DNA of 64,000 bases from positions 937,215-1,001,214 of the forward strand of contig OZ243932.1 in assembly GCA_965214035.1 (NCBI GenBank), in the 5' to 3' direction. Below the pieces are notes generated by a model, which was given only the letters and a program-made list of their open reading frames with translations, was not told the DNA's origin and made no database searches. The position numbers were made by a program, and so were the translations under genes. This stretch comes from Gammaproteobacteria bacterium (GTDB lineage Bacteria; Pseudomonadota; Gammaproteobacteria; JAJDYQ01). Below, piece by piece: positions 17,001-37,731 of this stretch. The first letter of the stretch is position 1; each line of letters begins with the position of its first letter.

Positions 17001-20000
17001 CCCGTTACGGTGACCGGTGTCAATGACGACCTGGATAATCCCGATGATGGGCGCGAGGTCATGATCCGCCATGCGGTCAGTGGTGCCGGCGACAGTGCCG
17101 GCTATACCCCGGCCCTGTCGATTGCGCCGGTATCGGTGACGGTGCTGGACGACGACACGGCCGGGCTGCGCTTCAGCCGTTCGGTGCTGGCGGTGGTTGA
17201 GGGCGGCAGTACGAGCTACGGTGTGCGTCTGACCAGCCAGCCGACCGCGGTGGTGACCGTGACCATTGCCAGCGACAACGGGGATCTGACAGCGGGCAAT
17301 ACCCCCTTGATGTTCAGTACGGACAACTGGCCCATGCCGCAGACGGTGACGGTAACGGCGGGCACGGACAGCGATATGGACAATAACGATGTCGCCCTCA
17401 GCCACACGGCCACGGGCGGCGGCTATAACTCGGTCAGCGCCACCCTGGGCGCGATGCTGCTGGAAGGCGGTACTGCCAGCGTCAGCATTGTGCAGAGCGA
17501 CGGTCGCACCATCGTCACGGAGGGGGTCAGCACGGATTTCTATGAGGTGGTGTTGAATACGGCACCGGACCGCGATGTGACCGTGAGAGTCAGTGCCGAC
17601 AGTGGTGTGACGGTCAATGGTGCGGCCACACTCGATCTGGTCTTTACCCCGACCAACTGGCATGAGGCGCAGCCGGTCATGGTAGCGGCGGTGGACAACA
17701 ATGCCGATGACGGTGTGCGCACGGCCGATATCAGCCATATCCTGAGTGTTGGGGACAATAATGACTATGACCGGACACTGACCATTGCCGGGGTAACGGT
17801 GACGGTGAACAGAGATCCAGATGATAGCCGTGGGCGGCTGGTGACTTTGAGTGGCGGTGATCAAGAAGGGTCGACGCGGTCTTTCAACTTTGTCTTCGAA
17901 AGTAGCCCAGGGCGAAGTCTGGGTGCTGACGAGGTCATGACGCTGCCGTTGATACCTGGTGGCGACGCGGTGCGCGGTCAGGATTATCAGGTGCGTTGTG
18001 AGCGCAACCCGGCAGGACGCGGATCGCACCCTGCGGTTTCCTGTGTCGAGTCAACAGACGGTCAACTGATGTTCATTCTGGATGGCACACAGATATCTCC
18101 CGGCAGACGAACATTCAGATTCACCCTGCCTTTGGAGGTGGAGTTGCTGGAGGACAATATGGCGGAACCGGTCGAGACCCTGACGCTGCGCCTTGGTGAG
18201 AACGGTCAGGACTTTCGCATCCCAATCATGGATGCGCCATCGACCGTGAGCGTGGAGTTTAACAAGTCAATCTATCGCAACAATGAAAATTTCCACTCCA
18301 TAACTCTGATACTTGAGATCAGTCCGCTACTGGGTCGTGCCATCGACTTGCCGCTGCTGTTTATTGACGGTACCGCACAGGCCGGATCAGACTTTGAACC
18401 GATCAGTTCCACCGTCCTTAATTTTACTTCTGAGGGGCGGGCATTTTTTGCTATCACACTCTTGGATGATCAGATAGCCGAAGGCGACGAGAGATTCACG
18501 GTCGTGATTGATGAAACCCGACTGCCGGACTTTATCACCGTTGGCACCAATGCCGCGGCCACAGTCATCATGACCGATAATGATGAGCGCGGGCTGGTTT
18601 TTGATTCCGATACACTGACTCTGGCGGAGGGTGGCACGGGCAGCTACACGGTGCGTCTGTCCAGCCAGCCGACCGATGAGGTGGCGGTGGTGATCGCCGG
18701 TCAGGCCGGTACCGACCTGATGCTGGACCGGGACATTCTGACCTTTACCACGGCGAACTGGAATCAGGCACAGATGGTGACGGTGATGGCCGAAGATGAC
18801 GACGATGGCGATGCCGATCGCATTGTGCTGGTGCATACGGCCTCCGGCGGTGACTATGGACTGACAGCCCGCGTGCAGGCCGACATCATCGACAGGGAGG
18901 CACCGGAGGTGCGGCTGAACAAGGAGGCCATCACGGTCAGCGAGGGCGGCAGCGGCGACAGCTATACGCTGGTGCTGCACACCGAACCGGCCGGCACCGT
19001 GACGGTGACTCTCGCTCCGGCGGCCGGCATAACGGTGCAGCCGGGTAGCGTGACCTTCACGGTGGATAACTGGAATACGCCGCAGGCGGTCACCGTGACC
19101 GGTGTGAATAGTGATGAGATTGACCGGGGTGATCGCACGGTGACCATTGTTCATACCATCACTGCCACCGATGACGCCGATGACTATCCGGAGGATCTGC
19201 GGATAGACCCGGTGCGTGTGACGATAGAGGAAGACGATGAGGCCGGCGTGATGATTGTCGAGAGCGGTGACCGTACGGCGGTCAGTGAAGACGGTGGCAT
19301 CAGGGATGACTACACGGTGGTGCTGACCTCACAGCCGGCCGCTCGTGTGGTGGTAACCGCCACGGCCGCGGCCGGTGTCAGTGTGGATACCCAGTCTCTG
19401 AGCGGTGTGCAGAACACCCTGACCTTTACCACCCTGAACTGGCAAAGCCCGCAGACGGTGACGGTGACCGGGGTGGATGTAGACACCGTGGATCGCGGGG
19501 ACCTTGATGTGTCGATCACTCATGCCATCACGACCACGGCCGGTGGTTATGTGAAAGAGTTGTCGATTGATTCGGTACCGGTGCAGGTGATTGACAATGA
19601 TGCGGCGAACCGCCTGCTGTTTGAGCTGGTTGATCCGGCAGCCGATGTGCTGGTCACGGAAGGTTCGGAGGTGGCCTACACGATGCAACTGGTGGGTCAG
19701 CCGCTGGCCGATGTCACGGTCGATATCAGCGGCCATGACGGCACGGATGTGACGCCGGCCCCGACCCGCCTGACTTTTACCACGCAGAACTGGAATGCCG
19801 GTCAGACGGTGACCCTGACGGTGGCGGCCGATGACAGCGGCGACGGCGAGCGTGTCACCCTGACGCACCGCGCCTCCGGCGGCGGCTATGATGGCACCGA
19901 GGTGGCACTGGAGGTGGCCATCACCGATAGTGATATATCGGGCGTGAGCATCAGCAAAGATACCCTCGTGGCCATCGAGAATGAGGCCGTTACCGACAGC

Positions 20001-23000
20001 TACACGGTGGTGCTGGACATACCGCCGGCCGGTGATGTCACTATCCAGGGTGAGATTCCAATTCAGGGTGGCACACTGGATATCAGACTGGTTTTCACAA
20101 CTGTCAACTGGAATCAACCGCAGACGGTCAGCATATTTGGAAGCATTTTCCTGGCAGACAACATCGACAATCCTGGTGGTGAACGCACCGCCACGACCAT
20201 CATGCATACGGTCACTTCCACGGACAGTGGCTACGACGGCATTGAGGTTGACGATGTGACCGTCACTGTGACAGATGTCGATCCCACTACGGTAACCCTG
20301 TCGGGTGCGGCGCTGGATGTGGTTGAGGGCACCGAGCGTACCCTCACCGTGTCGCTGGAGCGGGCGCTGGTGGCGGGTGAAGTGCTGCCGGTACCGCTGA
20401 CCTTTGCCGGCACCGCCACCCGCGGCACGGATTACACCCTGGAGGGTGTGCCAGCGACGGGCATTGGCTATGAGAACCTGAACAGCGGCAATGCGCAGGT
20501 GACCTTTACCGGTGGCACCGGTGCGGTCGGTACCGCGACCCTGACATTCAGAGCCACACCGGATGCGGACGATGAAGGCAGTGGTGAGACGGTGACGATT
20601 GGTCTGGGCACCCTGGATGAGAACTCCGGCACCGGTCTGAACGGCGGTGGCACTGGTACCAGCAGTCTGGCACCATTCCGCATTATAGAAAAGCCGATGA
20701 TCAACATTGCGGGCGGTCCGGCGGTGACCGAGGGCGGCAGTGTGACCTTTACCCTGACGGCCAGTGAAGCGCCGCTGTCGGATCTGACCATCAACCTGAT
20801 GGTGACGGATGCCGTGCACAGTGATTTTCTGGCGGCGGCTCGCGGAGGCAGGCAGAGTATCACCTTCGTCGGCGGCACGACCTCGGTCAGCTACGAAATT
20901 CCGACGCTGGCCGATATCGATGACGAAGCCGGCGGCACAGTGATGGTGGCGCTGCTGGACGGTGATGGTTATGTGGCGGGCAGCGCACCATCGGCCACCA
21001 CAATGGTCAATGACGACGATGCCACCACGGTGACACTGGCAGGCACAGACGATGATGTCGGCGAGGGGGCACGCAAGGAGCTGACCGTGACGTTGAGTCG
21101 GGGTCTGGTGGCGGGTGAGGTACTGCCGGTTGCGCTGTCTTTTGCCGGCACGGCAACCCGCGGTACGGACTACACCCTGATGGAGACGGTAGCGAATGGC
21201 GTGAGCTATGCCAATCTCAATGGTGGTGGCAGTGCAACGGTGACCTTTACCGGCCCGGCGGCGGGTGTCGGCGTCACCGAGGCCCGACTAAGTCTGAGGG
21301 CTGAGTTGGATGGAACAACCGAGGGCCTCGAGACTGTCATCATCGGCCTGGGCACGCTGGATGCGGATTCCGGTACGAATCTGGGCGGTGGTGCGACCGG
21401 TGTGGATGAACTGGGTGATTTCCAGATTCAGGAAACCCCGGAGATAGTGCTGGAGCGCAATAGCCTGATGCTGACCGAGCAAGGCAGTGCGACCTATACG
21501 GTCGGCCTGTCTGTATCACCGACGGCCGATGTGACGGTCAGGATCACCGGTCAGGTTGACACGGATCTGCAGGTGGATGCCGACACGCTGATCTTCTCTC
21601 AAACCAACTGGAGCACGGCGCGCACCGTGACGCTGATGGCGGTATCGGATACCGACAGCGAGGACGAGGCACCGGTGATGCTGAGGCATACGGCTACCGG
21701 TGGCAATTATGGTTTGGCGATAATGCGGACGGTAACGGTATCGATTGCGGACAACACACCGGGTCTGGTGCTGTCAACGGGCAGCCTGGATATGGAAGAG
21801 AATGAGGCCGAGAGCTATACAATCCGGCTGGCGATTCGTCCGATGGCGGATGTGACGGTGAGTGTATCTTCCGGGGATGCGCCCCGCCTGCGGGTGACCG
21901 GCGGTGACAGCCTGACCTTTACGCCGACCAACTGGAATCGGGCGCAAAGTGTGACGGTGATGGCTGAGGATGACGACGACAGCGACGCCAACCAGGTGAC
22001 GCTGACCCACACGGCGGATGCCGGCTACGGTTCGGTGACAGGAGATATCACGGTGGATATTGCCGATGACGACATACCGCGTGTGGTGCTCGGTGTTGAT
22101 GAATTGACTGTAATCGAAGGCGGCAGTGCGAGCTACACGGTAGAGCTGGGTACCCGTCCATCGGGCAATGTGACGATCGCACTGAGCGGTCAGGGCAGCA
22201 CTTTGAGGCCGGACAGGTCCGAGCTGACTTTTGATGCGGGCAACTGGGGTCAGGCGCAGACCATCACGCTGACGGCGGTCATGGACAGTAATACGACCCA
22301 TGATCAGGTGACGCTGATCCACACCGCCAGTGGCTATAGTGCGGCCCCGGCCGATCTGCCGGTGACCATCACGGACAGCACGCCGCAGTTGAGCTTCTCG
22401 CAGACCACATTCAATCTGGACGAAGGTGACAGCACGACCTACACGCTGGAGCTGTCAGCCGAGCCGGTCGGCACGGTGACGGTCACGCTGAGCGGTCACG
22501 AACGCACTGAACTGACGCCGGAACCGACCGAACTCACTTTTACACAGGACAACTGGAGTGAAGCCCAGGCCATCACCCTGACGGCCGGCACGGACAGCAA
22601 CAGTGTGGATGAGACCATCACGCTGACCCATAGCGCGGATGCCGGCTACGGTGCGGTGACGGAAGAGGTGACGGTCACGGTCCGGGATGCGGATACACCG
22701 CGCCTGATACTGAATACCGATGAATTGATCGAAGGCGGCAGTGCCACCTATAGAGTGACCGAGCAGGGCAGTGCGACCTACACGGTGCGGCTGGGCACGC
22801 AGCCTCGGGTGGATGTGACGGTCACGTTGACCGGGCATGAGGGCAGTGATCTGGTACCGACCCCGGCCCGTCTGGTGTTTGGTCGGGACAACTGGAACCG
22901 TGCGCAGCAGGTGACGCTGACGGCACGCGATGACGATGACAGCGTGAATGACGCGGTGACACTGTCTCACCGGGCCAGTGGCGGGGCTTATGCGGGTGTG

Positions 23001-24842
23001 ACCGCGCCGCCGTTGCCGTTGCTCATTATTGATAATACGCCGGCATTGGTGCTCTCGACGACAGAGGTTCTGACCTTAGAGGTTCTGACCTTGCAGCCGG
23101 GGGGCAGCAGCAGCTACACGGTGGCACTGGCGATTGCACCGACCGCAGATGTGATCGTGACGGTGATGGGGCATGAGGACCCGGGTCTGACAGTGGCACC
23201 GGAAAGTCTGACATTCAGTATGGGTAACTGGAATATGGCACAGACCATCACGGTGACGGCGGGCACGGACAGCAATGCGTTGTCGAATCCGGTGATTCTG
23301 ACCCATATGGCATCGGGCGGAAACTATGACCGTGTGACGGCCCAGGTTGAGGTCCGTGTGGGCAGCACGGAGGCGATGCAGGCCGCACAGCAGATGTGGT
23401 TGCCACGCTTTGGTCTGACGGCGATTGAGCATATGCTGGGTGGTCTGCATCATCGTTTCACGGCATCAGACCAGCCGGGTCTGTCGGGTAATCTGAACGG
23501 TCTGCCGCGCGGTCAGTCATTCAATGCGGCGCGTTTGCTGTCCAGTCGCGGCGGCCCGGATGCCAGTGTGCTGGGCATTGAGCAATTGGGTGCCGGTTCG
23601 GCGGATCGTCCGCGCAAGCTGTCACGCACGCTGTCCTTGCCGAAGCTGTTGCCGTCCATGCTGCGCGGCAGTCATTTCACATTGAGTGACGAGGACGGTA
23701 CTTCGATCTGGGGGCGTGCCTCGTATTCGAGCTATAAAGACGCCGACGATGGTACTTCGATAGACGGCGAGGTCACCACGGCCATGCTGGGTGTTGACCA
23801 CAGCAGTGGTCGGACGCTGCTGGGTCTGGCGCTGGCTTACAGCGACAGTGATGGTGAATGGCAGGGGCAGGGTGAATCGGACAAAGGTGAGTTGTCCGGT
23901 ACGCTGGCCTCCCTGCTGCCGTACCTGCGTTATGACCTGACGGAGCGTCTGCAACTGTGGGGTGCGGCGAGCTATGGTCGAGGTGATCTGGAGCAGACTT
24001 CAGAGACCGGCAGCGGCATCGAGTCGGAGCACGATCTGGAGCAGGTATCGGCGACGCTGGGTCTGCGCGGTACGTTGCTGGATCGTCCGGTGGAAGAGGG
24101 CGGTTTGAGTCTGAGGCTGATTTCGGATATGACGCTGGCGCGTATCAAGTCGGATGATTCCAATGCTGGAGTGCCGGGAGTGCCGGGTATGACGTTGGAT
24201 ACACAGCGTTTCCGGATGGGTCTGGAATGGTCCTGGCAGTTGCCGGAAGGGGGCGGTATGCGCCTGACACCGGAGCTGGAACTGGGTCTGCGTTATGACG
24301 GTGGCGATACCAGTGAAGGCTTTGGTCTGGAGCTGGGCGGTGGCCTGAACTGGCAGTTACCGGCCCGTGGTTTGACCTTTGATGTGCGCAGCCGTTATCT
24401 GCTGGAGCATGAGGCCTCCGGGCGTGAGGAGTGGGGTCTGTCCGGTTCACTGCGTTACAAGGCACGGCCGGATTCGGCGCATGGTCCGTCGTTCAGTCTG
24501 CGCCATGAGTACGGCAATGCACCGGCGGCCAGTGGTCTGGATCGGTTGTTGTCGGACTCCCTGACAGATGCGTTGAAGGAAGACAACTCTCAAACCGCTG
24601 ATGTATCGAGCCGCTGGACGCTGAAAGGCGAGTGGGGTTTTGCCCTGATGGATGATGCCACCGGTATCCCCTATGCGAGTCTGTCGGCATCCGATGCGAA
24701 ACGTGATCTGACTCTGGGCTGGCGTCTGTTGTCGAACCCGGCTGGCCTGAAGTCGAAGCTGGATATCAAGGCCATCCGCCGCGAGCAGGATGATAATAAC
24801 CCGCGCCACAGCGTCGGCGCACAGTGGAAGCTGAATTGGTAG
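10992..24842 (+). CDS. Giant (~4616 aa) modular surface protein, copy 1. It has an extended signal region, dozens of Calx-beta-like and Ig-like ~100-aa repeats, and a C-terminal autotransporter-like beta-barrel domain.
   Basis: The ATG at 10992 has an SD (GAGAGGG) 8 nt upstream. The signal peptide is MVSLLGLPLLFGLATQAVAQ. Repeats include GTATRGTDYTL motifs. The C-terminus (MQAAQQMWLPRFGLT...AQWKLNW) is shared by all three copies. Confidence 0.85.
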   Translation: MPAVDAGRSAVHSCREAGASEPPGRLTRRSFSDSFHSVTARTAGWLRRAAMVSLLGLPLLFGLATQAVAQTVPTLKVEGDFSVTEGDSGTITLTLSQAASGTITFTTGSYLTDCDTHNCPTDISGASASDFSSGTGSTRTITFNIGDTTKSLTFMTTEDSAIESTEIFSIGIVDLASSEATIDPGTPADRIFFGTFMSWWVRILDDDAPPMISIAGGSPATEGAGTLTYTLTANKPPATDLTINLTVSEDETDGQNFVAAGDENSQAVTFPAGTTAASYTIPITDDEVDEARGEVTVTINDGTGYTAGTDTVTITVRDDDRTIVTLAENPAGDLDEGARKQITLTLNRPLVSGETQVLSLELGGTATVNTDYTLAGIPADGVRYEDLASGNPGIVFTGQTSGSATTATLTVTAIADGISDPGEVITMEFATSELVSPDGDAGIQDARGGGPVSATRTIAFRITEQPALVLNPSMLTIDEGDTATYIVSLATQPNASVAITVSGQADTDLTLSGDTLSGDTLSFTMMNWNQPQTITVTAGSDDDAQSDDPIALLHTATGGNYAGVTGEVTVTITEDDTAGITVQPTTLAVDEGGTNNYTVVLTSAPAGEVIIEVRPGTVATVDNDMLTFAQSNWNQAQTVTVTGMDDAVYNAGDARSGTITHTIGTADGGAYTTDLELDSVTVTVTDDDNPTLTVSLPNGETTIEEGSGFTRVRITADPEPGAGDSSRLINQDPSNDLSNVLFFSPGYGWSSFRAPDTSFDPDIDFEFNIADNDNDQPNGTLTIDVSVLRGFAAGSPSMVTLTIIDNDPTEVSLIRTGSTGAIDEGGTVAFTVQLSRALVAGEIIDVPLVIDGTGVTPADWSLSATGTGVVLSNENTMTPLLRFENAGAQTAELTLTAISDNTVEGGGSETYVIDLGLGLVISPDELNGIDQGSLNTNVGGGADPHSGSNTFSVQVDDPTLTVSLPNGETTIEEGGSSITARFTANPPVAQSLGIPSNFRTLTTGYTSFTSLEDDSLVRPVDIGYFIDENNMDQPNGTLTIHVSDSRFAAGSPSMVTLTIIDNDPTEVSLIYTGSTGAIDEGQAVTFTVQLSRALIAGEIIDVPLAIDGTGVTPADWGLTEQAGIANTGVSLHDTDTAVPFIRFSGAGAETALLQLAAALDDTDEGGSETFMIALGQDGSTTNGFDLPGRATNVGGGADPDGDNNRFELVVNDEGSTVLSIGIDSVTDAEGDAGETTFKTVTVSLSRPYSRDLVVNVRRSGSATRGTDYELVGTGDNNALINFNPVRRFTITAGATSVQFRIRVIGDTVFDIDETVVLTLIGLTTGISEAVTDVVISNIVGAVTHTIENDDPGGKVTVSRSALSMEEADGAASYTLVLDSQPGDEIILTVAGGEADTATVNTTGGMAGIEQTLTFTTMNWDQAQTVLVAAVNDDEDNAGGSRRLTLTHTITTGDDAGYSTGLPVDAVVVTVVDDDRTIVTLDENPAGDLDEGASKQITLTLNRGLVNGEELVVPLTFGGDATRGTDYTLMEVAANGVSYANLTGSDDPAVTFIGPSSGTTAMTATLTLRAIADSTSDPGESVTIVPGTLTDTSLDGGGTVTGSLAFNIIERVALILGPDRLMVSEGMQTASYTIRLASEPTAPVTVVVTGYVGTGLTLDNDELIFTAANWNIARQVTLTTAAMDSDLAGSTLQLRHTASGGNYLSVTADLSVTLLDDTAGVVVMPSGDNTLVSEDGARTDDYTLRLSTQPVGDVVVRATAGTGLSVNDAAAADLTFTATNWNQAQTVTIAGIDDDIASGALRTVSVTHTIVNSADSGYPEDALRIANLDVMLIDDDTAGLLLSSSDLTLSEGDTISYTVRLTSQPTAVVSVTITSDNEDLTAGNTPLMFSTDNWSMPQTVLLTANADDDSDDEQAQLTHRVAGGDYGAISEVISVRITDRSAGVDITQSGGNTIVREDGGEDSYTLVLNAAPRGDVTLTVTAAAGITVDTDSLTFTTGNWQTPQPVTVTGVNDDLDNPDDGREVMIRHAVSGAGDSAGYTPALSIAPVSVTVLDDDTAGLRFSRSVLAVVEGGSTSYGVRLTSQPTAVVTVTIASDNGDLTAGNTPLMFSTDNWPMPQTVTVTAGTDSDMDNNDVALSHTATGGGYNSVSATLGAMLLEGGTASVSIVQSDGRTIVTEGVSTDFYEVVLNTAPDRDVTVRVSADSGVTVNGAATLDLVFTPTNWHEAQPVMVAAVDNNADDGVRTADISHILSVGDNNDYDRTLTIAGVTVTVNRDPDDSRGRLVTLSGGDQEGSTRSFNFVFESSPGRSLGADEVMTLPLIPGGDAVRGQDYQVRCERNPAGRGSHPAVSCVESTDGQLMFILDGTQISPGRRTFRFTLPLEVELLEDNMAEPVETLTLRLGENGQDFRIPIMDAPSTVSVEFNKSIYRNNENFHSITLILEISPLLGRAIDLPLLFIDGTAQAGSDFEPISSTVLNFTSEGRAFFAITLLDDQIAEGDERFTVVIDETRLPDFITVGTNAAATVIMTDNDERGLVFDSDTLTLAEGGTGSYTVRLSSQPTDEVAVVIAGQAGTDLMLDRDILTFTTANWNQAQMVTVMAEDDDDGDADRIVLVHTASGGDYGLTARVQADIIDREAPEVRLNKEAITVSEGGSGDSYTLVLHTEPAGTVTVTLAPAAGITVQPGSVTFTVDNWNTPQAVTVTGVNSDEIDRGDRTVTIVHTITATDDADDYPEDLRIDPVRVTIEEDDEAGVMIVESGDRTAVSEDGGIRDDYTVVLTSQPAARVVVTATAAAGVSVDTQSLSGVQNTLTFTTLNWQSPQTVTVTGVDVDTVDRGDLDVSITHAITTTAGGYVKELSIDSVPVQVIDNDAANRLLFELVDPAADVLVTEGSEVAYTMQLVGQPLADVTVDISGHDGTDVTPAPTRLTFTTQNWNAGQTVTLTVAADDSGDGERVTLTHRASGGGYDGTEVALEVAITDSDISGVSISKDTLVAIENEAVTDSYTVVLDIPPAGDVTIQGEIPIQGGTLDIRLVFTTVNWNQPQTVSIFGSIFLADNIDNPGGERTATTIMHTVTSTDSGYDGIEVDDVTVTVTDVDPTTVTLSGAALDVVEGTERTLTVSLERALVAGEVLPVPLTFAGTATRGTDYTLEGVPATGIGYENLNSGNAQVTFTGGTGAVGTATLTFRATPDADDEGSGETVTIGLGTLDENSGTGLNGGGTGTSSLAPFRIIEKPMINIAGGPAVTEGGSVTFTLTASEAPLSDLTINLMVTDAVHSDFLAAARGGRQSITFVGGTTSVSYEIPTLADIDDEAGGTVMVALLDGDGYVAGSAPSATTMVNDDDATTVTLAGTDDDVGEGARKELTVTLSRGLVAGEVLPVALSFAGTATRGTDYTLMETVANGVSYANLNGGGSATVTFTGPAAGVGVTEARLSLRAELDGTTEGLETVIIGLGTLDADSGTNLGGGATGVDELGDFQIQETPEIVLERNSLMLTEQGSATYTVGLSVSPTADVTVRITGQVDTDLQVDADTLIFSQTNWSTARTVTLMAVSDTDSEDEAPVMLRHTATGGNYGLAIMRTVTVSIADNTPGLVLSTGSLDMEENEAESYTIRLAIRPMADVTVSVSSGDAPRLRVTGGDSLTFTPTNWNRAQSVTVMAEDDDDSDANQVTLTHTADAGYGSVTGDITVDIADDDIPRVVLGVDELTVIEGGSASYTVELGTRPSGNVTIALSGQGSTLRPDRSELTFDAGNWGQAQTITLTAVMDSNTTHDQVTLIHTASGYSAAPADLPVTITDSTPQLSFSQTTFNLDEGDSTTYTLELSAEPVGTVTVTLSGHERTELTPEPTELTFTQDNWSEAQAITLTAGTDSNSVDETITLTHSADAGYGAVTEEVTVTVRDADTPRLILNTDELIEGGSATYRVTEQGSATYTVRLGTQPRVDVTVTLTGHEGSDLVPTPARLVFGRDNWNRAQQVTLTARDDDDSVNDAVTLSHRASGGAYAGVTAPPLPLLIIDNTPALVLSTTEVLTLEVLTLQPGGSSSYTVALAIAPTADVIVTVMGHEDPGLTVAPESLTFSMGNWNMAQTITVTAGTDSNALSNPVILTHMASGGNYDRVTAQVEVRVGSTEAMQAAQQMWLPRFGLTAIEHMLGGLHHRFTASDQPGLSGNLNGLPRGQSFNAARLLSSRGGPDASVLGIEQLGAGSADRPRKLSRTLSLPKLLPSMLRGSHFTLSDEDGTSIWGRASYSSYKDADDGTSIDGEVTTAMLGVDHSSGRTLLGLALAYSDSDGEWQGQGESDKGELSGTLASLLPYLRYDLTERLQLWGAASYGRGDLEQTSETGSGIESEHDLEQVSATLGLRGTLLDRPVEEGGLSLRLISDMTLARIKSDDSNAGVPGVPGMTLDTQRFRMGLEWSWQLPEGGGMRLTPELELGLRYDGGDTSEGFGLELGGGLNWQLPARGLTFDVRSRYLLEHEASGREEWGLSGSLRYKARPDSAHGPSFSLRHEYGNAPAASGLDRLLSDSLTDALKEDNSQTADVSSRWTLKGEWGFALMDDATGIPYASLSASDAKRDLTLGWRLLSNPAGLKSKLDIKAIRREQDDNNPRHSVGAQWKLNW

Positions 24843-24850
24843 GAAGTCCG

Positions 24851-24927
24851 TAGCCGGCTCTTCTCTCTGCCGGCTGTTGCGGGGCCGGATTCCATCCACA
24901 TTGTCACCGGCTTCGCTTTTTTATGGC
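24851..24927 (+). terminator. Stem-loops plus a T6 run downstream of giant gene copy 1 (candidate intrinsic terminator).
   Basis: The hairpin AGCCGGC-N10-GCCGGCT is followed by GCGGGGCCGG...CCGGCTTCGC-TTTTTT. The copy-2 homolog is a perfect 10-bp stem. Confidence 0.4.
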
Positions 24928-25014
24928 TCCAACCGTCCATGCCTGACACGCTCAGGCATAGGCGGCAGGCTGTCCAGATTGCCCGACTGGCTCAGAGATA
25001 TATTGCCTCGTGAA

Positions 25015-25252
25015 TCAGGCTGATATTACGACGCAAAAGGAATTTCTCAGGTTGTGGTTGGCTTCGCATAACTTATCCAGTAGTTCAGGGGTCGATATTT
25101 CACATACTGTCGCCGTCTCTAATGCCATAACGGTGGAATTGGGACATATACTCCCAGCCCATCCAGACCCATAATCTCGCCGGGCAGGTAAAAGCCGGTT
25201 ATCTGCTCCCGGCCCTGCTCGTTAATGATGAATGTTTTATAAGAACCTGAGC
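25015..25252 (-). pseudogene. Decayed FNR/CRP-family regulator remnant (internal frameshift, both ends lost).
   Basis: The translated pieces are FIINEQGREQITGFYLPGEIMGLDGLG and ALETATVCEISTPELLDKLCEANHNLRNSF. They match the E. coli FNR segments [24 protein letters not shown] and [29 protein letters not shown]. Confidence 0.5.
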
Positions 25253-25311
25253 TGACAGCGAAAATCCTTCATGATGCTGCTTTCTGCATTAGGATAGCCA
25301 TATCCGTTTGA

Positions 25312-26100
25312 ATGGTTATCCAGAACATGGTTTTGCCTCCAAAACGACAGGGCCGCTCGCTTTCCGAATGGTTTCAGACAACAGCAGGAGCAGACTTACT
25401 GGAAAAGGAAAATACCCTGTTGAAGAAAGTCCTGCCGGAGCTGTTTGGCTATCATCTACTGTGGACCGGGGAAGGGAATTATTGGTCGGGTGTTGCAGCT
25501 TCATCGGTCGCACACCATGTCCGCCTGCAGGCACCGGATAAATCCGCTGCCAAAGATTGTGATGTCATCGGCAGCCATACCAGCCTGCCTGTTCAGCGGG
25601 ACAGCATTGATGTTGTCATTCTGCCGCATCTTCTGGAGTATGACCGACACCCACATGCGATCCTGAGAGAGGCCGAACGTGTACTCCATCCAAACGGCCA
25701 TATCATCATTCTGGGATTTAATCCGGTCGGCTATCATGGGTTCTGCCGGGTATTATCCGGATTCCGGGGTAATATGCCGTGGCAGGGACATTTTTATCAT
25801 CCCTTGCGCATCCGAGACTGGCTTAAATTGCTTGGTTTTGTTGTTAAGTCAGTAAGTTACACTGCTTTTTTACCGTCAATTCGATATGGAAAAATGGCCC
25901 GATGCAGCAGATTTATTGAAAAGGCGGGGCAGGGGATGCTTGCGCCGTTGAGTGGTGTGTATATGATCACCGCTCGTAATTTGATCGTTGCCTCCAATGT
26001 GATCAAGCCTGGGCGGAGCAGGAAAAAGGCGGTTCTTGATGGGGTGGTAGAACCGACAACCCGCATCTGTTTGCCGAATAAGCGGCTCCGGGAAGTATGA
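25312..26100 (+). CDS. Class I SAM-dependent methyltransferase, YafS-like (duplicate copy).
   Basis: The product is 262 aa and carries the MTase motif [11 protein letters not shown]...[13 protein letters not shown]. It is 98-99 percent identical to 35770..36558. Confidence 0.7.
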   Translation: MVIQNMVLPPKRQGRSLSEWFQTTAGADLLEKENTLLKKVLPELFGYHLLWTGEGNYWSGVAASSVAHHVRLQAPDKSAAKDCDVIGSHTSLPVQRDSIDVVILPHLLEYDRHPHAILREAERVLHPNGHIIILGFNPVGYHGFCRVLSGFRGNMPWQGHFYHPLRIRDWLKLLGFVVKSVSYTAFLPSIRYGKMARCSRFIEKAGQGMLAPLSGVYMITARNLIVASNVIKPGRSRKKAVLDGVVEPTTRICLPNKRLREV

Positions 26101-26146
26101 GCAAAGTAGAAATTTTTGTCGATGGTGCCTGTCGCGGTAATCCCGG
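26097..26146 (+). pseudogene. rnhA: 5' stub of rnhA (the first ~17 codons, [17 protein letters not shown]), cut off at the duplication junction.
   Basis: The stub is identical to the start of the intact rnhA at 36555. It then runs into antisense ppc sequence. Confidence 0.75.
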
Positions 26147-26470
26147 CCACGACGCTCCGCTGCGGCCGGCCATAGCTCGTTGGCGGTGCATAAAAGACTC
26201 CTCGGCGATATGCAGCAGGCCGAAAAAGACCGTATAGGCCCGGATTACACGCGACAACAAACCCGGCTCAAGCCGGCGGATACGGCGCATCAAACGCCGA
26301 CGCAAGGCCGGATCATCTTTTTTCCGCAGTTTGCTGAAACCGCGGCGCAAAGACTGCACCGTCTTCAAAACCTCAGACTCCTCCTGAGAACTCAATACAT
26401 GACCGAGCACATCCCCGAACAGTCGCACCCGACTGCGCAATACCTTGTCATACCTCAACTCAATAGCCAT
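26147..26470 (-). pseudogene. ppc: Duplicated 5' fragment of ppc (first 108 codons). In the ORF track it is part of the chimeric ORF 26003..26569.
   Basis: ~98 percent nt identity to 10159..10482. The fragment retains the ppc promoter region. Confidence 0.8.
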
Positions 26471-26801
26471 AAAAGCAACCCGTGCGACACCGATCCACCG
26501 ATAAAACAGCGCATTATAACCGGCAAAATCCCTCCATAAAGGCAGCCGTGACCACAAACCCCGACCCAATACACCATAAATTTCGACAAAAAATACAATT
26601 TATGCTAAAAAAGGCTGTTTTTTGCTGACCGGCTGCTATAATTCAGGAAACAAAGGCCAACTGAACCGCTTGCCAGTGATGGCAGGCTGATTCAAGATAA
26701 GCCCAACCCTGTCAGCAGGCACGGTATCCGGCCCTTGCAACGGATACCACAAACAGTAACCGATAATTGGAAATTGATGAAAACACGCGACGGAGAATAA
26801 C

Positions 26802-27032
26802 ATGAAATCTGGACAAAAATGGATTCTGAACAGCAACAAGGGTCATGCCGTGATATGCAAAATCATCACAGTCATAAACAATGCCTTGCGACCGGCAGGC
26901 ATCGATATTGACCTGTGTAAAAATACAGCCCCCCCCCCCCCCCCCCCAAATGGGAGGGTATATCTGATGCCGGCCGCTCTGCGGTGCATTCCTGTCGCGA
27001 GGCAGGTGCCTCTGAGCCTCCTGGCTGGCTGA
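26802..27032 (+). CDS. Upstream leader ORF (76 aa) of giant gene copy 2. It reads through the poly-C as Pro codons and through the ancestral start ATG.
   Basis: GGAGAATAAC-ATG context. It is in frame with the ATG at 26967 and stops at 27032, because of the missing 13-bp unit. Confidence 0.3.
   Translation: MKSGQKWILNSNKGHAVICKIITVINNALRPAGIDIDLCKNTAPPPPPPNGRVYLMPAALRCIPVARQVPLSLLAG
26929..26947 (+). repeat. Homopolymeric tract of 19 C, followed by only 3 A, upstream of giant gene copy 2.
   Basis: Counted directly in the sequence. Confidence 0.95.
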
Positions 27033-30000
27033 CGCGCCGGTCTTTTTCCGACAGTTTCCATTCTGTGACAGCCCGCACCGCCGGCTGGCTGCGCCGTTGC
27101 CGGGGTTCGTCCTCCCGGCCTGAATCTTCCGCTCCTGCGTCTGCCTTATCGAATCCTGACCGTTTAACTTCATCATCCGTCATTCCCGCGAAGGCGGGAA
27201 TCCACAACCGCCGGAACACGCCCCAACCCGATAATCATTCCCCCCTTGAGGGGGAGTCCAATCCGCTTGCGGATTGGGTGGGGGGACACAACCGTCATCC
27301 TGCGCCCCAACCAGCCGTCATTCCCGTGGAAGCGGGAATCCGCAACCATACGGAGATTGCGGTTAACCGTCATCGTAGGGGCGCCCCTCTGTGGGTGCCC
27401 GCTATCGTTGATACCTGTTCCGGTGGTTGCGGGAGGGCACAGAGACCCTCCCCTACGATAACGGTTCGATCACCACACAAAACCCACCTCGCCCGCCGTT
27501 CGTGGCGTGACTTGCTTTCAGCGTTGCTGTGCCTGTCGCTGCTTTTGGTCCTCGCTGCCGGGGAGGCGCAGGCGCAGACCACCCTGTCCATCAGCGCCCC
27601 CGCGGACGCGAACGAGGGCGATGCGGGCACGCGGGACCTCACGTTCACGGTGACCCGGACCGGAGGGACGGCCAATGCGAACTATCAAGTCTGTTTCACC
27701 GGCACGGCGACCATCGACACGACCGCGGCCGGCACCATTCCCGACGCCGCCGACTACCAGCCTTTAACCATCGTCAGCGGAACCGGTTTTCCAGCGGGCA
27801 GCAATTGCCTCACCGGCCAAACCGCCGGCATCGGTTCCGAGGGCATCCGCGTGAAGGGCGACACCGACGCCGAGTCCGACGAAACGGTGATCGCGACGCT
27901 GTCCTTGCGTGGTCCAAACCCCGGCGTCACCCTCGGCAACTCCGTAGTAACCCACACGATCCTCGACGACGACGACCCACAAATCACCATTGCTGCCGAC
28001 ACCGCCTCTGTCGCCGAAGGCACCACCGCCAGCTTTACCATCACGACCAACGCGCCTCCGGCAGACGACCTGACCATTAATTTAACTGTCTCTGATGACG
28101 AAACCAATGGCCAGAACTTTGTCGCTGCCGGTGACGAAGGCAGCAAAACGGTCACCATTCAGGCCGGTCAACTCTCGGCCACTCATACCGTCGCCACAGA
28201 CGACGACAGCACGGCCGAACTGAGCGGTGCGGTCACCGTCACCCTCAACGACGGCACCGGCTACACCGTCGGCTCCACCAACACCGCCACCGTCAACATC
28301 ACCAATGACGACCCCCATGTCGTATCCATCAGCATTGAACCGGAAGAAGCAGAAGGAGATGAAGGCAATAGTGGTGGCTTGACCGATGCCGCCACACTGA
28401 CCTTTACCGTCAATCCGCCATGGCCAGAGAGATTCGGGCTTAGAATCTGTTTGGACGGTGGTACCGCCGAGCGTGGTAGCAGTGCAGACTATCAGTTCAC
28501 ACGCCTGAATGACACAGTGCCTGCTATTGCTCCTGTTGCTGGTGGTTGCGATAGCGCTGTGCTAACCCTCTTCAGCAGTAATCAGGCATCCTCCATCTCA
28601 AAAATCCGGGTCAACGGTGACAGCCTGTTCGAGGCAGACGAAACCGTCACCGTCAGCCTGCAACGAAGCAATAATTTGGGCGGCACCTTCGACACTCCCG
28701 ACGATGTCATCATCTCCCCCACGGCCGGCAGTGTCATCTACACCATCCGCAATGACGATGACCCGCCCATGATTTCCATTGCCGGCGGCAGTCCGGCCAC
28801 CGAGGGAGTCGGCACGCTCACCTACACACTGACGGCGGACAAACCACCGGTCACAGATCTGACCATTGACCTGACCGTCATGGACGTACCCGGCAGTGAC
28901 TTTATTGCAGCAGAAGGCGACCAGACCGTCACCTTCCCGGCCGGCACCACCGCGCTCAACTACGAAATTCCGATCACCGACGATGAAGTCGATGAAGCCA
29001 GCGGCGAGGTCACGGTGACAATCAATGACGGTACCGGTTATACCGCCGGCACCGACACGGCCACCATCAGGGTGCGCGACGACGATAGAACCATCGTCAC
29101 CCTGGACGAAAATCCGGCCGGCGACCTCGATGAAGGCGCCAGCAAACAGATTACTCTCACACTGAACCGTCCGCTGGTTTCAGGTGAGGGACTGGTCTTC
29201 TCGCTCACCCTTGGTGGCACCGCCACGGTGAATACGGACTATACCCTGGCCGGCATACCGGCGGACGGCGTGAGTTACAGTAATCTGGCCCCGCCGACCG
29301 AGAGCTCTGCAATCTCCTTTACCGGCCAGACTTCCGGCTCTGCCACGACCGCCACACTGACCGTGACGGCCATCGCAGATGGTATCTTTGACCCCGGCGA
29401 GGGCATCACCATAGAGTTTGCAACGGGAATAGTAAGCCCGGACGGCGATGCGGGAATACAGGACGCTCGGGGCGGCGGTCCGGTCAGCGCCACCCGAACG
29501 ATTGCCTTCAGGATCAACGAACAACCGGCGCTGGTACTGAATCCATCCACCCTGACCATTGACGAGGGCGATACGGCGACCTACACCGTGTCTCTGGCCA
29601 CCCAGCCCAATGCGCCAGTGGCCATTACTGTAAGCGGTCAGGCCGATACCGATCTGACCTTGAGTGATGATACCCTCAACTTCACCATGATGAACTGGAA
29701 CCAGCCGCAGACCATCATGGTCACCGCCGGGTCGGACGACGACACCCAATCGGATGACCCGATCGCCCTGTTGCACACCGCCACCGGTGGCGACTATGCC
29801 ACCGTCACCGGTGAAGTCACGGTCACCATCACCGAAGACGATACGGCCGGTATCACCGTACAGCCGACCACCCTGGCCGTGGATGAAGACGGCACCAACA
29901 ACTATACCGTGGTACTGACCTCGGCCCCGGCCGGCGAGGTCATCATCACGGTTGATTCGGGCACGGTCGCCACCGTCAATAATGACATGCTGACCTTTGC

Positions 30001-33000
30001 CCAGAGTAACTGGAATCAGGCACAGACGGTCACCGTGACCGGCATGGATGACAATGTCCACAATGCCGGCGATGCACGCTCTGGCACCATCACCCATGCC
30101 ATTAGTCAGGGCGACAGCGGCGATTACCCTATTGGCCGTGAGATTGACCCGGTACAGCTCACCGTCGCCGACAACGACGACCCGGCCTTGAGCATACAGG
30201 TGGTGGGCGACCATACCAGCATTGAAGAAGGCGGTGCCCGCATGATACGGATCACCGTATCGCCGGATACCGGCGAGAGCTTTATGCTGCTCGATGTCCG
30301 TCCCTTGCTGAGGATCAGCGACGGCTATGAGTTGACGCTGGTTCAGACCGACACCAGCCTGAATCCGACCCTGCAATTTGAGGTCAGCGTGACCGACAAT
30401 GATCAGGATGGGGCGGATGGTATGCTGACCATTGATGTTTCCTCCGTGACCGGCTATGCCGCCGGCAGCCCGGCCATGGTACAACTGACTGTCAATGACA
30501 ACGACCAGGCCGATATCCTGATCACCGGGACCGGTAGCGTCACCCGTGTCGCTGAAAACGGCGGCACCGACAGCTACAGGGTGGTACTGACCTCACAGCC
30601 AACCGCCAGCGTCACCGTCACCGCTGCTCCCGGCACCGGCATCACGATGACCGACACCACCCTGACCTTTACCAGCACGGACTGGAACCAACCGCAGACC
30701 CTCATCGTCACCGGTCAGGATAACAATGACGACGATGCCAGCGATCGCCGTGTCGCCATCAGCCATACCCTGAGCGGCGATAGCCAATACAGCGGCCTCA
30801 GCATTGACGACCTGATGGTCATGGTTGATGACGACGACCCGACCGAAGTCAGCCTGACCCGCACCGGCAGCACGGGCGCCATTGATGAAGGCCAGGCCGT
30901 TACCTTCACGGTCGAGTTAGGTCGTGCCCTGATCGCCGGCGAAATCATCGAGGTACCTCTGAGCGTAACCGGTACCGATGTCGAACTGACCGACTGGAGC
31001 CTGGCACTACAATCGGGCACGGGTGTGGTTCTGTCCAATGAGGACACAATGACCCCACAACTGAGTTTTGAGAATGCTGGCGCACAGACGGCTGAACTGA
31101 CCTTGACCGCCATCGGCGACAATACGATGGAGGGCGGTGGTTCCGAGACCTTCATCATTGCCCTGGGGCCGGACGGCACGGTCACCAATGGCTTTGACCA
31201 CAGCAGTCTGAACACGAATGTGGGCGGCGGTGCCGATCCGGATTCACCCGACCATTTCAGTGTGCAGGTCAACGATGTCATGGTGATGCCGATGATCACC
31301 ATCACCGGCGGTACCACGGTCACAGAAGGAATGGGCAGTGCCAGCTTTACCCTGACCGCCACACCGGCTCCGACGGACGCCCTGACCCTGATGCTCAATA
31401 TCAGCGGCGGCAGCGGTTTTATCGCCACCAGCGGCGCACAGTCAGTCACCCTGAATAGTGGTTCCAGCACGGTGACCTATTTGATTGCGACGCAGGGCGA
31501 TGCCGTGGATGAGGCGAATGGCACGGTCACCGTGACGGTGGGTGATGGTGCGGGCTATGAAGTGGGCGATCCGTCCGAGGTGTCCGCGTCCGTCGCGATA
31601 CATGACGACGATGCCACCACAGTCACGCTGGCCGGTGATCCTGGTAATGTGGCCGAAGGCGACAGCAAACCGCTCACCCTCACCCTGGGTCGTGCCCTGA
31701 CGGCCGGCGAACAACTGACCGTGCCGCTGACCTTCGGCGGTACGGCTGTCTTCGGCACCGACTACACACTGACCGGCACCACAGCCAATGGCGTGGATTA
31801 CAGCGATCTGAGCGGCGGCAGCGTGATCTTCAGCGCCGGTGGTCAGATGGCCACCCTGACCCTGATGGCACAAACGGATGCCGTGGCCGAGACCGGCGGC
31901 GAAACGGTCCGCATTGCTCTGGGCACACTGGACAGCAGTTCCGGCACCAACCTGGGCGGCGGTGCCTCTGGCACGACCAATCTGGACGAGTTTACGATTG
32001 AGGAACAACCGGCGCTGGTATTGAGCACGACCCGCCTGACCCTCATTGAAGGCGACAGTGCCAGCTACCGAGTCAGCCTGGCAGTCGCACCGAGCGCCGA
32101 TGTCATGGTGACCCTCACCGGCACCAATGCCGAACTACAGGCCGATGACACCACCCTGACCTTTACCTCACAGAACTGGGGTAACCCGCAGACCGTCACG
32201 CTGACGGCGGTCACGGACAGTAACACCGTGACGGATCAGGTGACGCTGACCCACAGTGCCGATGCCGGCTATGATTCCGTCATGGCCAGCCTGACGGTGG
32301 AGCTGATTGACAGCACACCACAGTTGAGTTTCTCGCAGACCACGATTGATCTGAATGAAGGTGACAGCACGACTTATACACTGCAACTATCGGCTGAGCC
32401 GGTCGGCACGGTGACGGTCGCACTGAGCGGTTATGACGGCACTGCGCTGGCGCCGCAGCCGCTTGAGTTGACCTTTACACAGGATAACTGGAATCAGGCA
32501 CAGACGATTACCCTGAGCGCCGGCACGGACAGCAACAGCGTGAATGAGGCTGACGTGACACTGGTTCATACGGCGGATGCCGGCTACGGCGAGGAGGTCA
32601 CGGAAGACGTGACGGTGACGATTGCCGACACCGACGCACCGCGCCTGATTGTGGGTGTCAATACCCTGAGCGTGACCGAGCAGGGCAGTGCGACCTACAC
32701 GGTCACCCTGACCACCGAGCCGAGTGCCGATGTCACGGTGACGATTACCGGTCAATCCGGTGATCTGAGAGTGGATAGCGGCACTGAGCTGACCTTCACG
32801 CAGTCCAACTGGAATGAGGGACAGGTGGTCACACTGTCAGCCATTGCCGACGATGACAGCGAGGATGAGGCGTTGATCACCCTGACGCACACGGCGTCCG
32901 GTGGTGGATACGGGACTGCCTCGGCGGAACGGTTATCGGTGCGCATTCTGGACAGCACACGGGGTTTGGTGCTCTCAGAGAGCAGCCTGGATATGGAAGA

Positions 33001-35368: not shown

Positions 35369-35376
35369 GAAGTCCG

Positions 35377-35446
35377 TAGCCGGCACCTCTCTGCCGGCTG
35401 TTGCGGGGCCGGATCCATCCGTATTGTCACCGGCCCCGCTTTTTTA
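35377..35446 (+). terminator. Intrinsic terminator downstream of giant gene copy 2.
   Basis: GCGGGGCCGG-N17-CCGGCCCCGC is a perfect 10-bp stem, followed by TTTTTT. Confidence 0.55.
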
Positions 35447-35474
35447 TGGCTCCAACCGTCCATGCCTGACACGC

Positions 35475-35712
35475 TCAGGCATAGTACGACGCAAAAGGAA
35501 TTTCTCAGGTTGTGGTTGGCTTCGCATAACTTATCCAGTAGTTCAGGGGTCGATATTTCACATACTGTCGCCGTCTCTAATGCCATAGCGGTGGAATTGG
35601 GACATATACCCCCAGCCCATCCAGACCCACAATCTCGCCGGGCAGGTAAAAGCCGGTTATCTGCTCCCGGCCCTGCTCGTTAATGATGAATGTTTTATAA
35701 GAACCTGAGCTG
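35475..35712 (-). pseudogene. Decayed FNR/CRP-family regulator remnant (second copy).
   Basis: The degenerate pieces match those at 25015..25252. The ORF track lists 35197..35586 (MALETATVCEISTPELLDKLCEANHNLRNSF...). Confidence 0.5.
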
Positions 35713-35769
35713 ACAGCGAAAATCCTTCATGATGCTGCTTTCTGCATTATGATAGCAATATCCGTTTGA

Positions 35770-36558
35770 ATGGTTATCCAGATCATGGTTTTGCCTCCAA
35801 AACGACAGGGCCGCTCGCTTTCCGAATGGTTTCAGACAACAGCAGGAGCAGACTTACTGGAAAAGGAAAATGCCCTGTTGAAGAAAGTCCTGCCGGAGCT
35901 GTTTGGCTATCATCTACTGTGGACCGGGGAAGGGAATTATTGGTCGGGTGTTGCAGCTTCATCGGTCGCACACCATGTCCGCCTGCAGGCACCGGATAAA
36001 TCCGCTGCCAAAGATTGTGATGTCATCGGCAGCCATACCAGCCTGCCTGTTCAGCGGGACAGCATTGATGTTGTCATTCTGCCGCATCTTCTGGAGTATG
36101 ACCCACACCCACATGCGATCCTGAGAGAGGCCGAACGTGTACTCCATCCAAACGGCCATATCATCATTTTGGGATTTAATCCGGTCGGCTATCATGGGTT
36201 CTGCCGGGTATTATCCGGATTCCGGGGTAATATGCCGTGGCAGGGACATTTTTATCATCCCTTGCGCATCCGAGACTGGCTTAAATTGCTTGGTTTTGTT
36301 GTTAAGTCAGTAAGTTACACTGCTTTTTTACCGTCAATTCGATATGAAAAAATGGCCCGATGCAGCAGATTTATTGAAAAGGCGGGGCAGGGGATGCTTG
36401 CGCCGTTGAGTGGTGTGTATATGATCACCGCTCGTAATTTGATCGTTACCTCCAATGTGATCAAGCCTGGGCGGAGCAGGAAAAAGGCGGTTCTTGATGG
36501 GGTGGCAGAACCGACAACCCGCATCTGTTTGCCGAATAAGCGGCTCCGGGAAGTATGA
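35770..36558 (+). CDS. Class I SAM-dependent methyltransferase, YafS-like.
   Basis: The product is 262 aa. Its stop overlaps the rnhA start (ATGA). The yafS-rnhA-dnaQ order matches E. coli. Confidence 0.75.
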
Positions 36559-37001
36559 GCAAAGTAGAAATTTTTGTCGATGGTGCCTGTCGCGGTAATC
36601 CCGGTCGCGGCGGCTGGGGTGCATTGATGCGCTACAGAGGGCAGGAAAAATCCTTTAATGGGGGGGAAGTGGACACAACCAATAATCGTATGGAGCTGGC
36701 AGCGGCAATTATGGCACTGGAAAAATTGAAGCGCCCAAGTGAGGTTGTGCTGACAACAGATTCGCAGTATGTAAAAAAAGGCATCAGTGAGTGGATCCAT
36801 AACTGGAAAAAAAATGGCTGGAAAACCACCGCTAAAAAACCGGTAAAAAACATGGATCTCTGGCAGCGTCTTGAGCAGGCAGTCAGTCAGCATAATGTGG
36901 AGTGGTGCTGGATAAAGGGCCACAGCGGTCATCGGGAGAATGAAATAGCCGATAGACTGGCTAATGCGGCTATTGATGCACTACCCCCGGATAAGCCATA
37001 A
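36555..37001 (+). CDS. rnhA: Ribonuclease HI.
   Basis: The product is 148 aa and starts [23 protein letters not shown]. The TDSQYV motif is present. Confidence 0.9.
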
Positions 37002-37008
37002 TCCCGAT

Positions 37009-37731
37009 ATGCGCCAAATCGTTCTTGACACGGAAACTACTGGCCTGGAAGTGGGCCATGGCCACCGCATTATTGAGATTGGTTGCGTGGAGATTGTGAA
37101 CCGTCGCTTGTCAGGGAATAATTATCACCAGTATCTCCAGCCAGACCGTGAGATCGATGAAGGCGCGGCTGAGGTACACGGCATTAGCAACCAGTTTCTG
37201 GCCGATAAACCGCAGTTTGCCGATATTGCCTCTGATCTGCTGGCCTATCTCGAAGGGGCCGAACTGATTATTCACAATGCGCCATTCGATGTCGGTTTTT
37301 TGAATCGAGAGTTCAGAATGGTTTATGACACCGGGTTTGAGCTGGCGGACAAGTGCCAGATCCTCGATACCCTCGCCATGGCACGCAGAATGCACCCCGG
37401 CGTCAAAAATAGCCTGGATGCTCTGTGTAAGCGGTACGATATTGATAATTCCAGCCGTGATTTGCACGGTGCATTGCTTGACTCGGAAATCCTGGCCGAT
37501 GTTTATCTGGCTATGACGGGCGGACAGAGCTCGCTTTCACTGGATACCGATGAAGATGCCGGACAGGTACAACAACAGGTTGTTGACCGACTCAGTACCA
37601 ATCGTGCCAGTCTGCCGGTTATATCTCCCACGGCCGCAGAGACCGAGGCCCATGCCCGGTATCTCGATATGATTGAAAAGCAGTCGGGCTATTGTATCTG
37701 GCACCGCCATGAAAATGAGAATATAAATTAA
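37009..37731 (+). CDS. dnaQ: DNA polymerase III epsilon subunit (3'-5' exonuclease).
   Basis: MRQIVLDTETTGLE matches the exo I motif. The product is ~240 aa and lies downstream of rnhA. Confidence 0.85.
   Translation: MRQIVLDTETTGLEVGHGHRIIEIGCVEIVNRRLSGNNYHQYLQPDREIDEGAAEVHGISNQFLADKPQFADIASDLLAYLEGAELIIHNAPFDVGFLNREFRMVYDTGFELADKCQILDTLAMARRMHPGVKNSLDALCKRYDIDNSSRDLHGALLDSEILADVYLAMTGGQSSLSLDTDEDAGQVQQQVVDRLSTNRASLPVISPTAAETEAHARYLDMIEKQSGYCIWHRHENENIN

Follow-up and report, generated by a model that had tools for sequence, protein, structure and literature searches.

Tandem duplications formed at microhomologies have been studied well in the laboratory, where they are unstable and have to be maintained by selection, and they are rarely preserved in natural genomes because homologous recombination quickly collapses them. 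Reams and Roth reportedly described duplications with short junctions in Salmonella. A related process, homology-facilitated illegitimate recombination, occurs in transformable bacteria such as Acinetobacter and pneumococcus, and tandem arrays of variable adhesin genes are found in Bartonella quintana (vomp) and Haemophilus influenzae (hmw1/hmw2). In Escherichia coli, the joints of lac amplifications lie at G-rich microhomologies of 4-15 bp, 7-32 kb apart (Slack et al. 2006, PMC1428787). Loci whose homopolymers make them phase-variable include the meningococcal autotransporters NalP and MspA (PMC3723659), and tracts of this kind have been treated generally (PMC2831843, PMC1891110).

Here we analyse a locus at which a giant surface-protein gene and its neighbours occur twice, within a stretch of 64,000 nucleotides of a gammaproteobacterial genome that we call the window. 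We consider it very probable that the joint between the two copies records one head-to-tail tandem duplication, made in situ by microhomology-mediated illegitimate recombination. The mechanism, microhomology-mediated tandem duplication, is a known one, and it is the setting that is new.

The two units and their joint

The left part of the window carries the partial gene of a giant protein (giant0), pepA (minus strand), lptF, lptG, ppc (minus strand), a leader with the gene giant1, and a remnant of fnr. These are followed by a yafS-like gene, a stub of rnhA, a fragment of ppc (ppc', minus strand), a second leader with the gene giant2, a second fnr remnant and a second yafS-like gene, and on the right by rnhA, dnaQ and a PD-(D/E)XK / UvrD-type helicase-nuclease pair. 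We verified what the genes are with NCBIfam and Pfam models, and ppc, rnhA and dnaQ score above the NCBIfam equivalog cut-offs. The intact ppc, encoding phosphoenolpyruvate carboxylase (7705-10482, minus strand; PF00311, E = 7.7e-288; NF000584, 879 bits), holds the left parental breakpoint; rnhA is intact at 36555-37001 (plus strand; NF001236, 238 bits), and dnaQ (36964-37731, plus strand; NF004316) belongs to the single-copy right flank. The gene called yafS encodes a class I SAM methyltransferase (Methyltransf_11), and we refer to it as yafS-like. Beyond the helicase-nuclease genes, the intergenic stretch at 44421-44890 is rearranged between the window and a metagenome-assembled genome (MAG) of a sister species (L001, 9943-10650). 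Window 44421-44531 is matched by two segments of the latter (10301-10405 and 9943-10207), and this hints at a local repeat in that region.

Self-BLAST of the window shows two collinear units arranged head to tail, both on the plus strand. Unit 1, delimited by self-BLAST and by the alignment of the junction, occupies 10159-26146 (plus strand, 15,988 bp) and contains ppc nt 1-324, the intergenic leader, giant1, the fnr remnant, the yafS-like gene and rnhA nt 1-50. Unit 2, delimited by self-BLAST, follows directly at 26147-36604 (plus strand, 10,458 bp). A preliminary description, made from the letters of the window, had proposed two such units meeting at this breakpoint; the self-alignment recovers both, at the sizes given there. 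It had also put the flanks at about 98-99% identity between units, and self-BLAST agrees. On the right, 25015-26146 and 35475-36604 are 98.7% identical, with 13 mismatches in 1132 columns. On the left, 10154-11135 and 26142-27097 are 95.5% identical when gaps are counted and 98.3% over ungapped columns (16 mismatches), the gaps being a difference in the length of a poly-C tract, a 4-nt indel just past that tract and a 13-bp indel.

To locate the joint, we aligned the junction with both of its parents. The junction tracks the intact rnhA up to 26146 and the antisense strand of the intact ppc from 26147 on, so that there is a single novel joint, rnhA nt 50 to ppc nt 324 (antisense), at 26146/26147. 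The bases CCCGG at 26142-26146 are found in both parents, at 10154-10158 in ppc (nt 325-329, antisense) and at 36600-36604 in rnhA (nt 46-50). Because both parents carry these bases and mismatches flank them directly, the microhomology is exactly 5 bp. Among 200,000 random joins within the window, the probability of a microhomology of at least 5 bp was 0.006, and of at least 6 bp 0.002. The three-way alignment thus agrees with the switch to antisense ppc at 26147 and with the CCCGG common to both partners that had been described, and together with the self-alignment and the chance test it bears out a head-to-tail duplication at a 5-bp microhomology. The rnhA stub (26097-26146, plus strand) is, as had been stated, identical to the start of the intact rnhA (36555-36604), but it is 50 nt long and not 52, with 45 nt that are unambiguous and 5 that are common to ppc.

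The other side of the joint is ppc' (26147-26470, minus strand), the first 324 nt of ppc, corresponding to codons 1-108. Read-through over the joint creates a chimeric ORF of 155 aa (26003-26470). A protein search with this ORF found only two ppc fragments, both of them distant, and did not turn up the joint in any other source. Among JGI metagenome contigs, from which the organism is absent, there were 0 matches to a 24-mer of the junction and 0 to the poly-C leader. Annotators would do best to treat both the rnhA stub and the ppc-like ORF of 155 aa as debris of the duplication.

Neither parental site contains an IS, an rrn operon or a long repeat, and both lie inside coding sequence (ppc and rnhA). 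Neither there nor at 26,147 did we find a transposase or integrase ORF, a terminal inverted repeat or a target-site duplication. This bears on the idea that a mobile element or site-specific recombination (IS, integron or phage integrase) brought a giant-gene cassette next to rnhA. A protein recorded outside the window (P0172) does fuse an integrase N-terminal domain (PF13495) to a barrel fragment of the giant family, and units with a truncated yafS joint are present at other loci, as such an idea would have it. However, the joint lies in two housekeeping genes whose flanks are duplicated in order, which transposition does not do, and with no such genes or element ends at the breakpoints we rejected mediation by an IS, an integron or a phage as extremely unlikely.

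Copy-specific changes in the two units

Each unit keeps a remnant of the global regulator gene fnr, at 25037-25269 in unit 1 and at 35495-35727 in unit 2 (both minus strand), consisting of about 233 bp from the middle of a 783-bp gene. The remnant had been recognised in the preliminary description and is genuine: at the same site, relatives (L001, L002 and L005-L007) carry an intact gene of 260 aa that passes the Fnr model (NF008365, 231 bits; cut-off 228). In the sister species the intact fnr is found at 363-1145 of one contig (L005), and in the window it has been cut down to an internal fragment by two deletions. In the sister species, rnhA has both fnr and yafS as its native neighbours. A scan of the genome collection for YafS found one MAG, of a sister species, whose contig ends 1.2 kb upstream of yafS and about 360 nt beyond fnr. 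The same fnr remnant as in the window is present in two contigs of a related metagenome (L003 and L004), and its occurrence there and in both units indicates that the fnr deletions are older than all of the duplications.

The yafS-like gene of unit 1 (25312-26100, plus strand) encodes a protein identical to P0001, and that of unit 2 (35770-36558, plus strand), which is near the ancestral state, one identical to P0111. When the yafS region is polarised with two outgroups, unit 1 has 7 derived substitutions and unit 2 has 2. Those of unit 1 (25292-25990) comprise 5 nonsynonymous changes (I5N, A35T, P112R, E193G and T227A) and 2 changes just upstream of the gene. An excess of derived changes is expected of a redundant copy, and the pattern suggests relaxed constraint on the upstream yafS copy, which is probably decaying. 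It is plausible that the duplicated ppc promoter transcribes ppc' and runs antisense into the yafS-like gene of unit 1, and such antisense transcription may contribute to the relaxed constraint. Private to unit 2 are a 13-bp deletion, the insertion of a cluster of REP-like elements, and, downstream of the giant gene, the loss of about 57-73 bp. The fragment ppc' differs from the intact ppc by 4 synonymous changes and 1 nonsynonymous change, which looks more like the divergence of two functional alleles than the decay of a dead fragment, although with n = 5 this is not significant (estimated p about 0.09).

Changes specific to one copy argue against a repeat that was collapsed or expanded in assembly. 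Two strain haplotypes of one locus, or a chimeric long read, could nevertheless have been concatenated in tandem: the source organism is uncultured, its relatives are MAGs and metagenome contigs, the short-read contigs of those relatives all end within about 360 nt upstream of fnr, and giant repetitive genes are difficult to assemble. We consider this very unlikely, since assemblers based on graphs or overlaps join on long overlaps and not on five bases, and a microhomology like that of the joint is expected in 0.6% of random joins. Moreover, the upstream yafS has the amino-acid excess of a real redundant copy, and the same architecture, with another microhomology joint, is present in an independent assembly on a contig labelled 133x. 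An NCBI/ENA contig of 2,513,604 bp has on record proteins that match both yafS copies and rnhA exactly, and we infer that the three genes lie on one and the same contig. The flanks of the units differ by about 1-1.7% and the interiors by at least 10%, and no simple clock can date either.

Leader sequences and reading frames

The leader of each giant gene is part of the duplicated block. A possible extended -10 promoter, TGCTATAAT, was found by eye at 10646-10654 (plus strand) and is duplicated with every unit. This element was not reported at 10646-10654 by a consensus promoter scanner, and we regard it as a putative promoter of the giant gene. Downstream, a start of the form GGAGGA-N4-ATG, with GGAGGA as a strong Shine-Dalgarno sequence, is found at 10814 in unit 1 and at 26802 in unit 2. 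Four copies have a poly-C tract at an equivalent position, beginning 127 nt past the start ATG: it has 28 C in unit 1 (10941-10968, plus strand), 19 C in unit 2 (26929-26947, plus strand), 28 C in L003 (10785-10812) and 29 C in L004 (1670-1698). If in frame, the tract would encode 6-10 prolines.

The four copies differ in phase. The ATG of L003 is in frame through the tract and opens an ORF of 1870 aa without a stop, while in unit 1 and L004 the ATG is shifted by one base against the giant ORF. In unit 1 the reading frame from the ATG (10814-10975, plus strand) stops just past the tract, which means that giant1 is out of phase in the assembly. At a putative internal start, a 13-bp direct repeat (GATGCCGGCCGTC / GATGCCGGCCGCT) is present in unit 1 (window 10991-11016), in L003 and in L004. 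Unit 2 has lost one copy of GATGCCGGCCGTC / GATGCCGGCCGCT (at 26968-26980), and this 13-bp deletion shifts the frame, placing the unit 2 ATG one base out of frame. The leader has the layout of a translational phase-variation switch, in which slippage of the poly-C tract would put the body of the gene into or out of frame with its start codon. The length of homopolymers of 19-29 bases is difficult to determine in long-read assemblies, which leaves the ON and OFF states of individual copies uncertain. The apparent frameshifts at the tracts are likely to be biological and not sequencing errors to be corrected.

The leader of unit 2 is further set apart by a cluster of REP-like palindromes of about 390 bp (27098-27490, plus strand), present in unit 2 only and in frame within the 5' region of giant2, where it comes between the leader and the hydrophobic signal-peptide core. 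Within the cluster, GTCATTCCCG(C/T)G(-/G)AAG(G/-)CGGGAATCC occurs twice. The sister species has similar palindromes too, upstream of its fnr gene (L005, 100-175). A dRS3-like palindrome had hinted at a Neisseria origin, but we rejected this, as the only relatives found are MAGs classified no further than 'Gammaproteobacteria bacterium'.

Architecture of the giant proteins

The ORF of giant1 extends over 10893-24842 (plus strand, 4649 aa) and that of giant2 over 26984-35368 (plus strand, 2794 aa). At the left edge of the window, giant0 (1-2466, plus strand) is the 3' part of a third, more distant member of the family and runs off the window; it shares 44% identity with the C-terminus of giant1 over 839 aa, has a weak TIGR01414 match and ends, as giant1 does, in a ...KLSW barrel terminus. 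The giant proteins carry Calx-beta, fn3-like and LapA-like repeats and a predicted C-terminal outer-membrane beta-barrel. Homologues with Calx-beta repeats are common among ENA metagenome proteins (P0128-P0189). Near 11140-11200, giant1 has a segment that by eye resembles a signal peptide and ends in AVAQT. For the 42-aa N-terminal segment we considered an extended signal peptide of the ESPR type and rejected it, there being no Pfam match.

The C-terminal domain of the giants matches TIGR01414 with 26 bits (cut-off 16), but over 71 residues only, and a Pfam scan of the C-termini of the window giants gave no PF03797; the paralogs P0117-P0119 carry a precomputed PF03797. In an AlphaFold2 model of the domain (23580-24839, pLDDT 83.5), a helix precedes about 19 strands. 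The best Foldseek matches of the model are the 22-strand barrels of TonB-dependent receptors (TMq about 0.5), and the translocators of NalP, BrkA and EspP match partly (TMq 0.3-0.36). A classical type Va autotransporter has a 12-strand barrel plugged by a linker helix, which a domain modelled with about 19 strands does not match. As the modelled barrel is nearer in size to 22 strands than to 12, we call the giants autotransporter-like and not classical type Va. Judged from leader and domains together, the giant genes look like genes for phase-variable surface proteins.

Mosaic interiors of the giant genes

Between the well-conserved flanks, the two units differ strongly. On the left side identity is 96-100% up to 11135, after which homology ceases, and from the fnr remnant onward it is again 97-100%. 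In between, self-BLAST aligns the interiors in patches of 77-90% only, and the identity of giant1 and giant2 in 100-nt windows ranges over patches of 68-100%. Tandem Repeats Finder detected no short-period arrays between 10 and 37 kb, and the difference in length between the giants is therefore not a simple change in repeat number.

We scanned unit 2 in 500-bp windows against unit 1, L003 and L004. The segments 27647-28646 and 30147-32146 of unit 2 are 83-96% identical to L003/L004, and unit 1 matches them little or not at all. Several segments within giant2 itself reach 90-96% identity to the giants of L003/L004, again with little or no match in giant1. Some other windows of unit 2 are closest to unit 1, at 84-92%. 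This is reflected in the proteins, the L003 giant being 75% identical to giant2 over 1088 aa and about 43% identical to giant1. The interior difference looks like the outcome of exchange among paralogs of the family, and not of simple or uniform decay after the duplication. Strong divergence of the giant genes had been noted before, and that observation stands; it had been attributed to rapid remodelling or to exchange between the two units alone, and mosaic exchange with other members of the family explains it better.

A giant2 interior very unlike that of giant1, between flanks that are about 99% identical, is also what one would expect if unit 2 had been imported. Homology-facilitated illegitimate recombination needs imported DNA, here a segment with ppc', a second giant allele (allele B), fnr', yafS and rnhA, which would have been anchored by homology in rnhA/dnaQ while its other end was joined to recipient rnhA nt 50 at CCCGG. 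Events of this class resemble the present case in having one homologous end and the other at a microhomology of 3-10 bp, and their product is indistinguishable from that of an internal duplication, the predicted final structure being identical to the one observed. The differences in ppc', 4 of 5 of which are synonymous, are of the kind found between functional alleles. We nevertheless consider import unlikely. The fnr deletions and the architecture are common to both units, which would make the donor a very close relative and the distinction small; a multi-copy family inside the genome already accounts for the mosaic interior; the second joint described below involves resident sequence only; and nothing indicates that this organism takes up DNA by natural transformation.

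A second joint and the wider family

Duplication in situ, the origin that we prefer, has a parallel in a second joint, which we call junction B. Here yafS nt ~349 is joined to a point 21 nt upstream of the ppc ATG (equivalent to 10503 in the window). In the window's parental sites (25655-25660 and 10498-10503) the microhomology is the 6 bp CGATCC, for which chance gives 0.2%. Junction B sits in the two contigs already mentioned (L003, 10330-10360; L004, 1215-1245), which come from a related long-read metagenome (ERZ25070917), one of them labelled 133x. The order in L003 is the rnf operon, a barrel fragment of 271 aa, fnr', yafS' (119 aa), the joint, the leader and a giant gene that runs off the contig end; in L004 it is the 3' end of a giant gene, fnr', yafS', the joint, the leader, a giant gene (3056 aa) and rpoZ. 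The yafS' fragments differ from the yafS-like gene of unit 2 at 0 or 1 of 349 nt. Since fnr and yafS are native beside rnhA in the sister species, the copies in L003 and L004 descend from the window locus and were later moved. The unit may have been excised as a circle that then recombined by homology into a paralog.

Four truncated YafS proteins (P0106, P0116, P0109 and P0020) are recorded on a contig of the same length, 2,513,604 bp, none of the four being encoded in the window. One of them, P0020, follows yafS to codon ~106 and then continues straight into the translated intergenic region between ppc and the giant gene. Junction B thus appears to be present on the window's own 2.5-Mb contig as well. 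Further ORFs with the C-terminal barrel are recorded on a contig of that length (P0117-P0120, P0124, P0127 and P0172), and together with giant0 they indicate at least seven or eight members or fragments of the family. In P0172, an integrase N-terminal domain of about 130 aa is fused at ...LLYGSG|DTSEGFGLELGGG... to the family barrel fragment, and this fusion may be a further illegitimate joint in the genome.

The two distinct surviving joints mark the history of the giant surface-protein family, and the fnr'-yafS' scar ties the copies at other loci to the window locus, so that the expansion can be traced stepwise. In the course that we propose, the CCCGG in rnhA (nt 46-50) and that in ppc (nt 325-329, antisense), separated by the length of one unit, would have recombined, presumably by a template switch or by unequal joining of sister strands. 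The block so copied would be a self-contained expression unit, with promoter, ATG and Shine-Dalgarno sequence, poly-C tract, giant gene, fnr fragment and yafS-like gene, and the rnhA-dnaQ operon would have been kept intact behind unit 2. Thereafter, in an order that is itself conjectural, the redundant upstream yafS would have begun to gather amino-acid changes, the giants would have been reshuffled by homologous exchange with other members of the multi-copy family, and the leader of unit 2 would have gained its 13-bp deletion and its REP-element insertion. The outcome would be two variants of a giant surface protein anchored in the outer membrane, each presumably switchable independently of the other. 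The family is a probable system of antigenic or adhesive variation.

As a tentative and somewhat doubtful extension, the process may have been recurrent, with units copied in tandem by microhomology at the ppc-rnhA locus and then spread, probably as circles, to paralogous loci by rnf and upstream of rpoZ, each with the fnr'-yafS' scar. If this were true, a 2.5-Mb genome would hold giant adhesin genes or fragments, at least seven or eight in number, that can each be switched independently, and the locus would be a natural record of how a contingency-gene family is constructed.

Comparison with known systems

The joint in the window fits the E. coli amplification joints in both size and distance (PMC1428787). 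As in the enterobacterial duplications formed at microhomologies, there is a direct repeat of about 10-16 kb with one joint at a G/C-rich microhomology of 5 bp (6 bp in junction B), kilobases separate the parental sites, and the ends are free of IS and rrn sequences. Unlike the laboratory duplications, that of the window has become fixed in a genome from nature, where its flanks have had time to diverge by about 1%.

The leaders resemble loci of the NalP/MspA type in that a long G/C homopolymer lies just past the start codon of a surface protein and varies in length among the copies (19, 28, 28 and 29), one copy being open (L003) and the others frame-shifted, with the reservation that long-read homopolymer calls are error-prone. 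They differ in that the tracts are unusually long (19-29 C) and would encode poly-proline when in frame. In addition, the host here is an uncultured gammaproteobacterium and no known pathogen, unlike the hosts of the meningococcal phase-variable loci.

The family as a whole is similar to the vomp and hmw arrays, with several large paralogous adhesin genes, some of them adjacent, recombination among the copies and a putative expression switch for each. However, the giants are built of Calx-beta repeats and a large C-terminal barrel, and the joints of their duplications can still be read.
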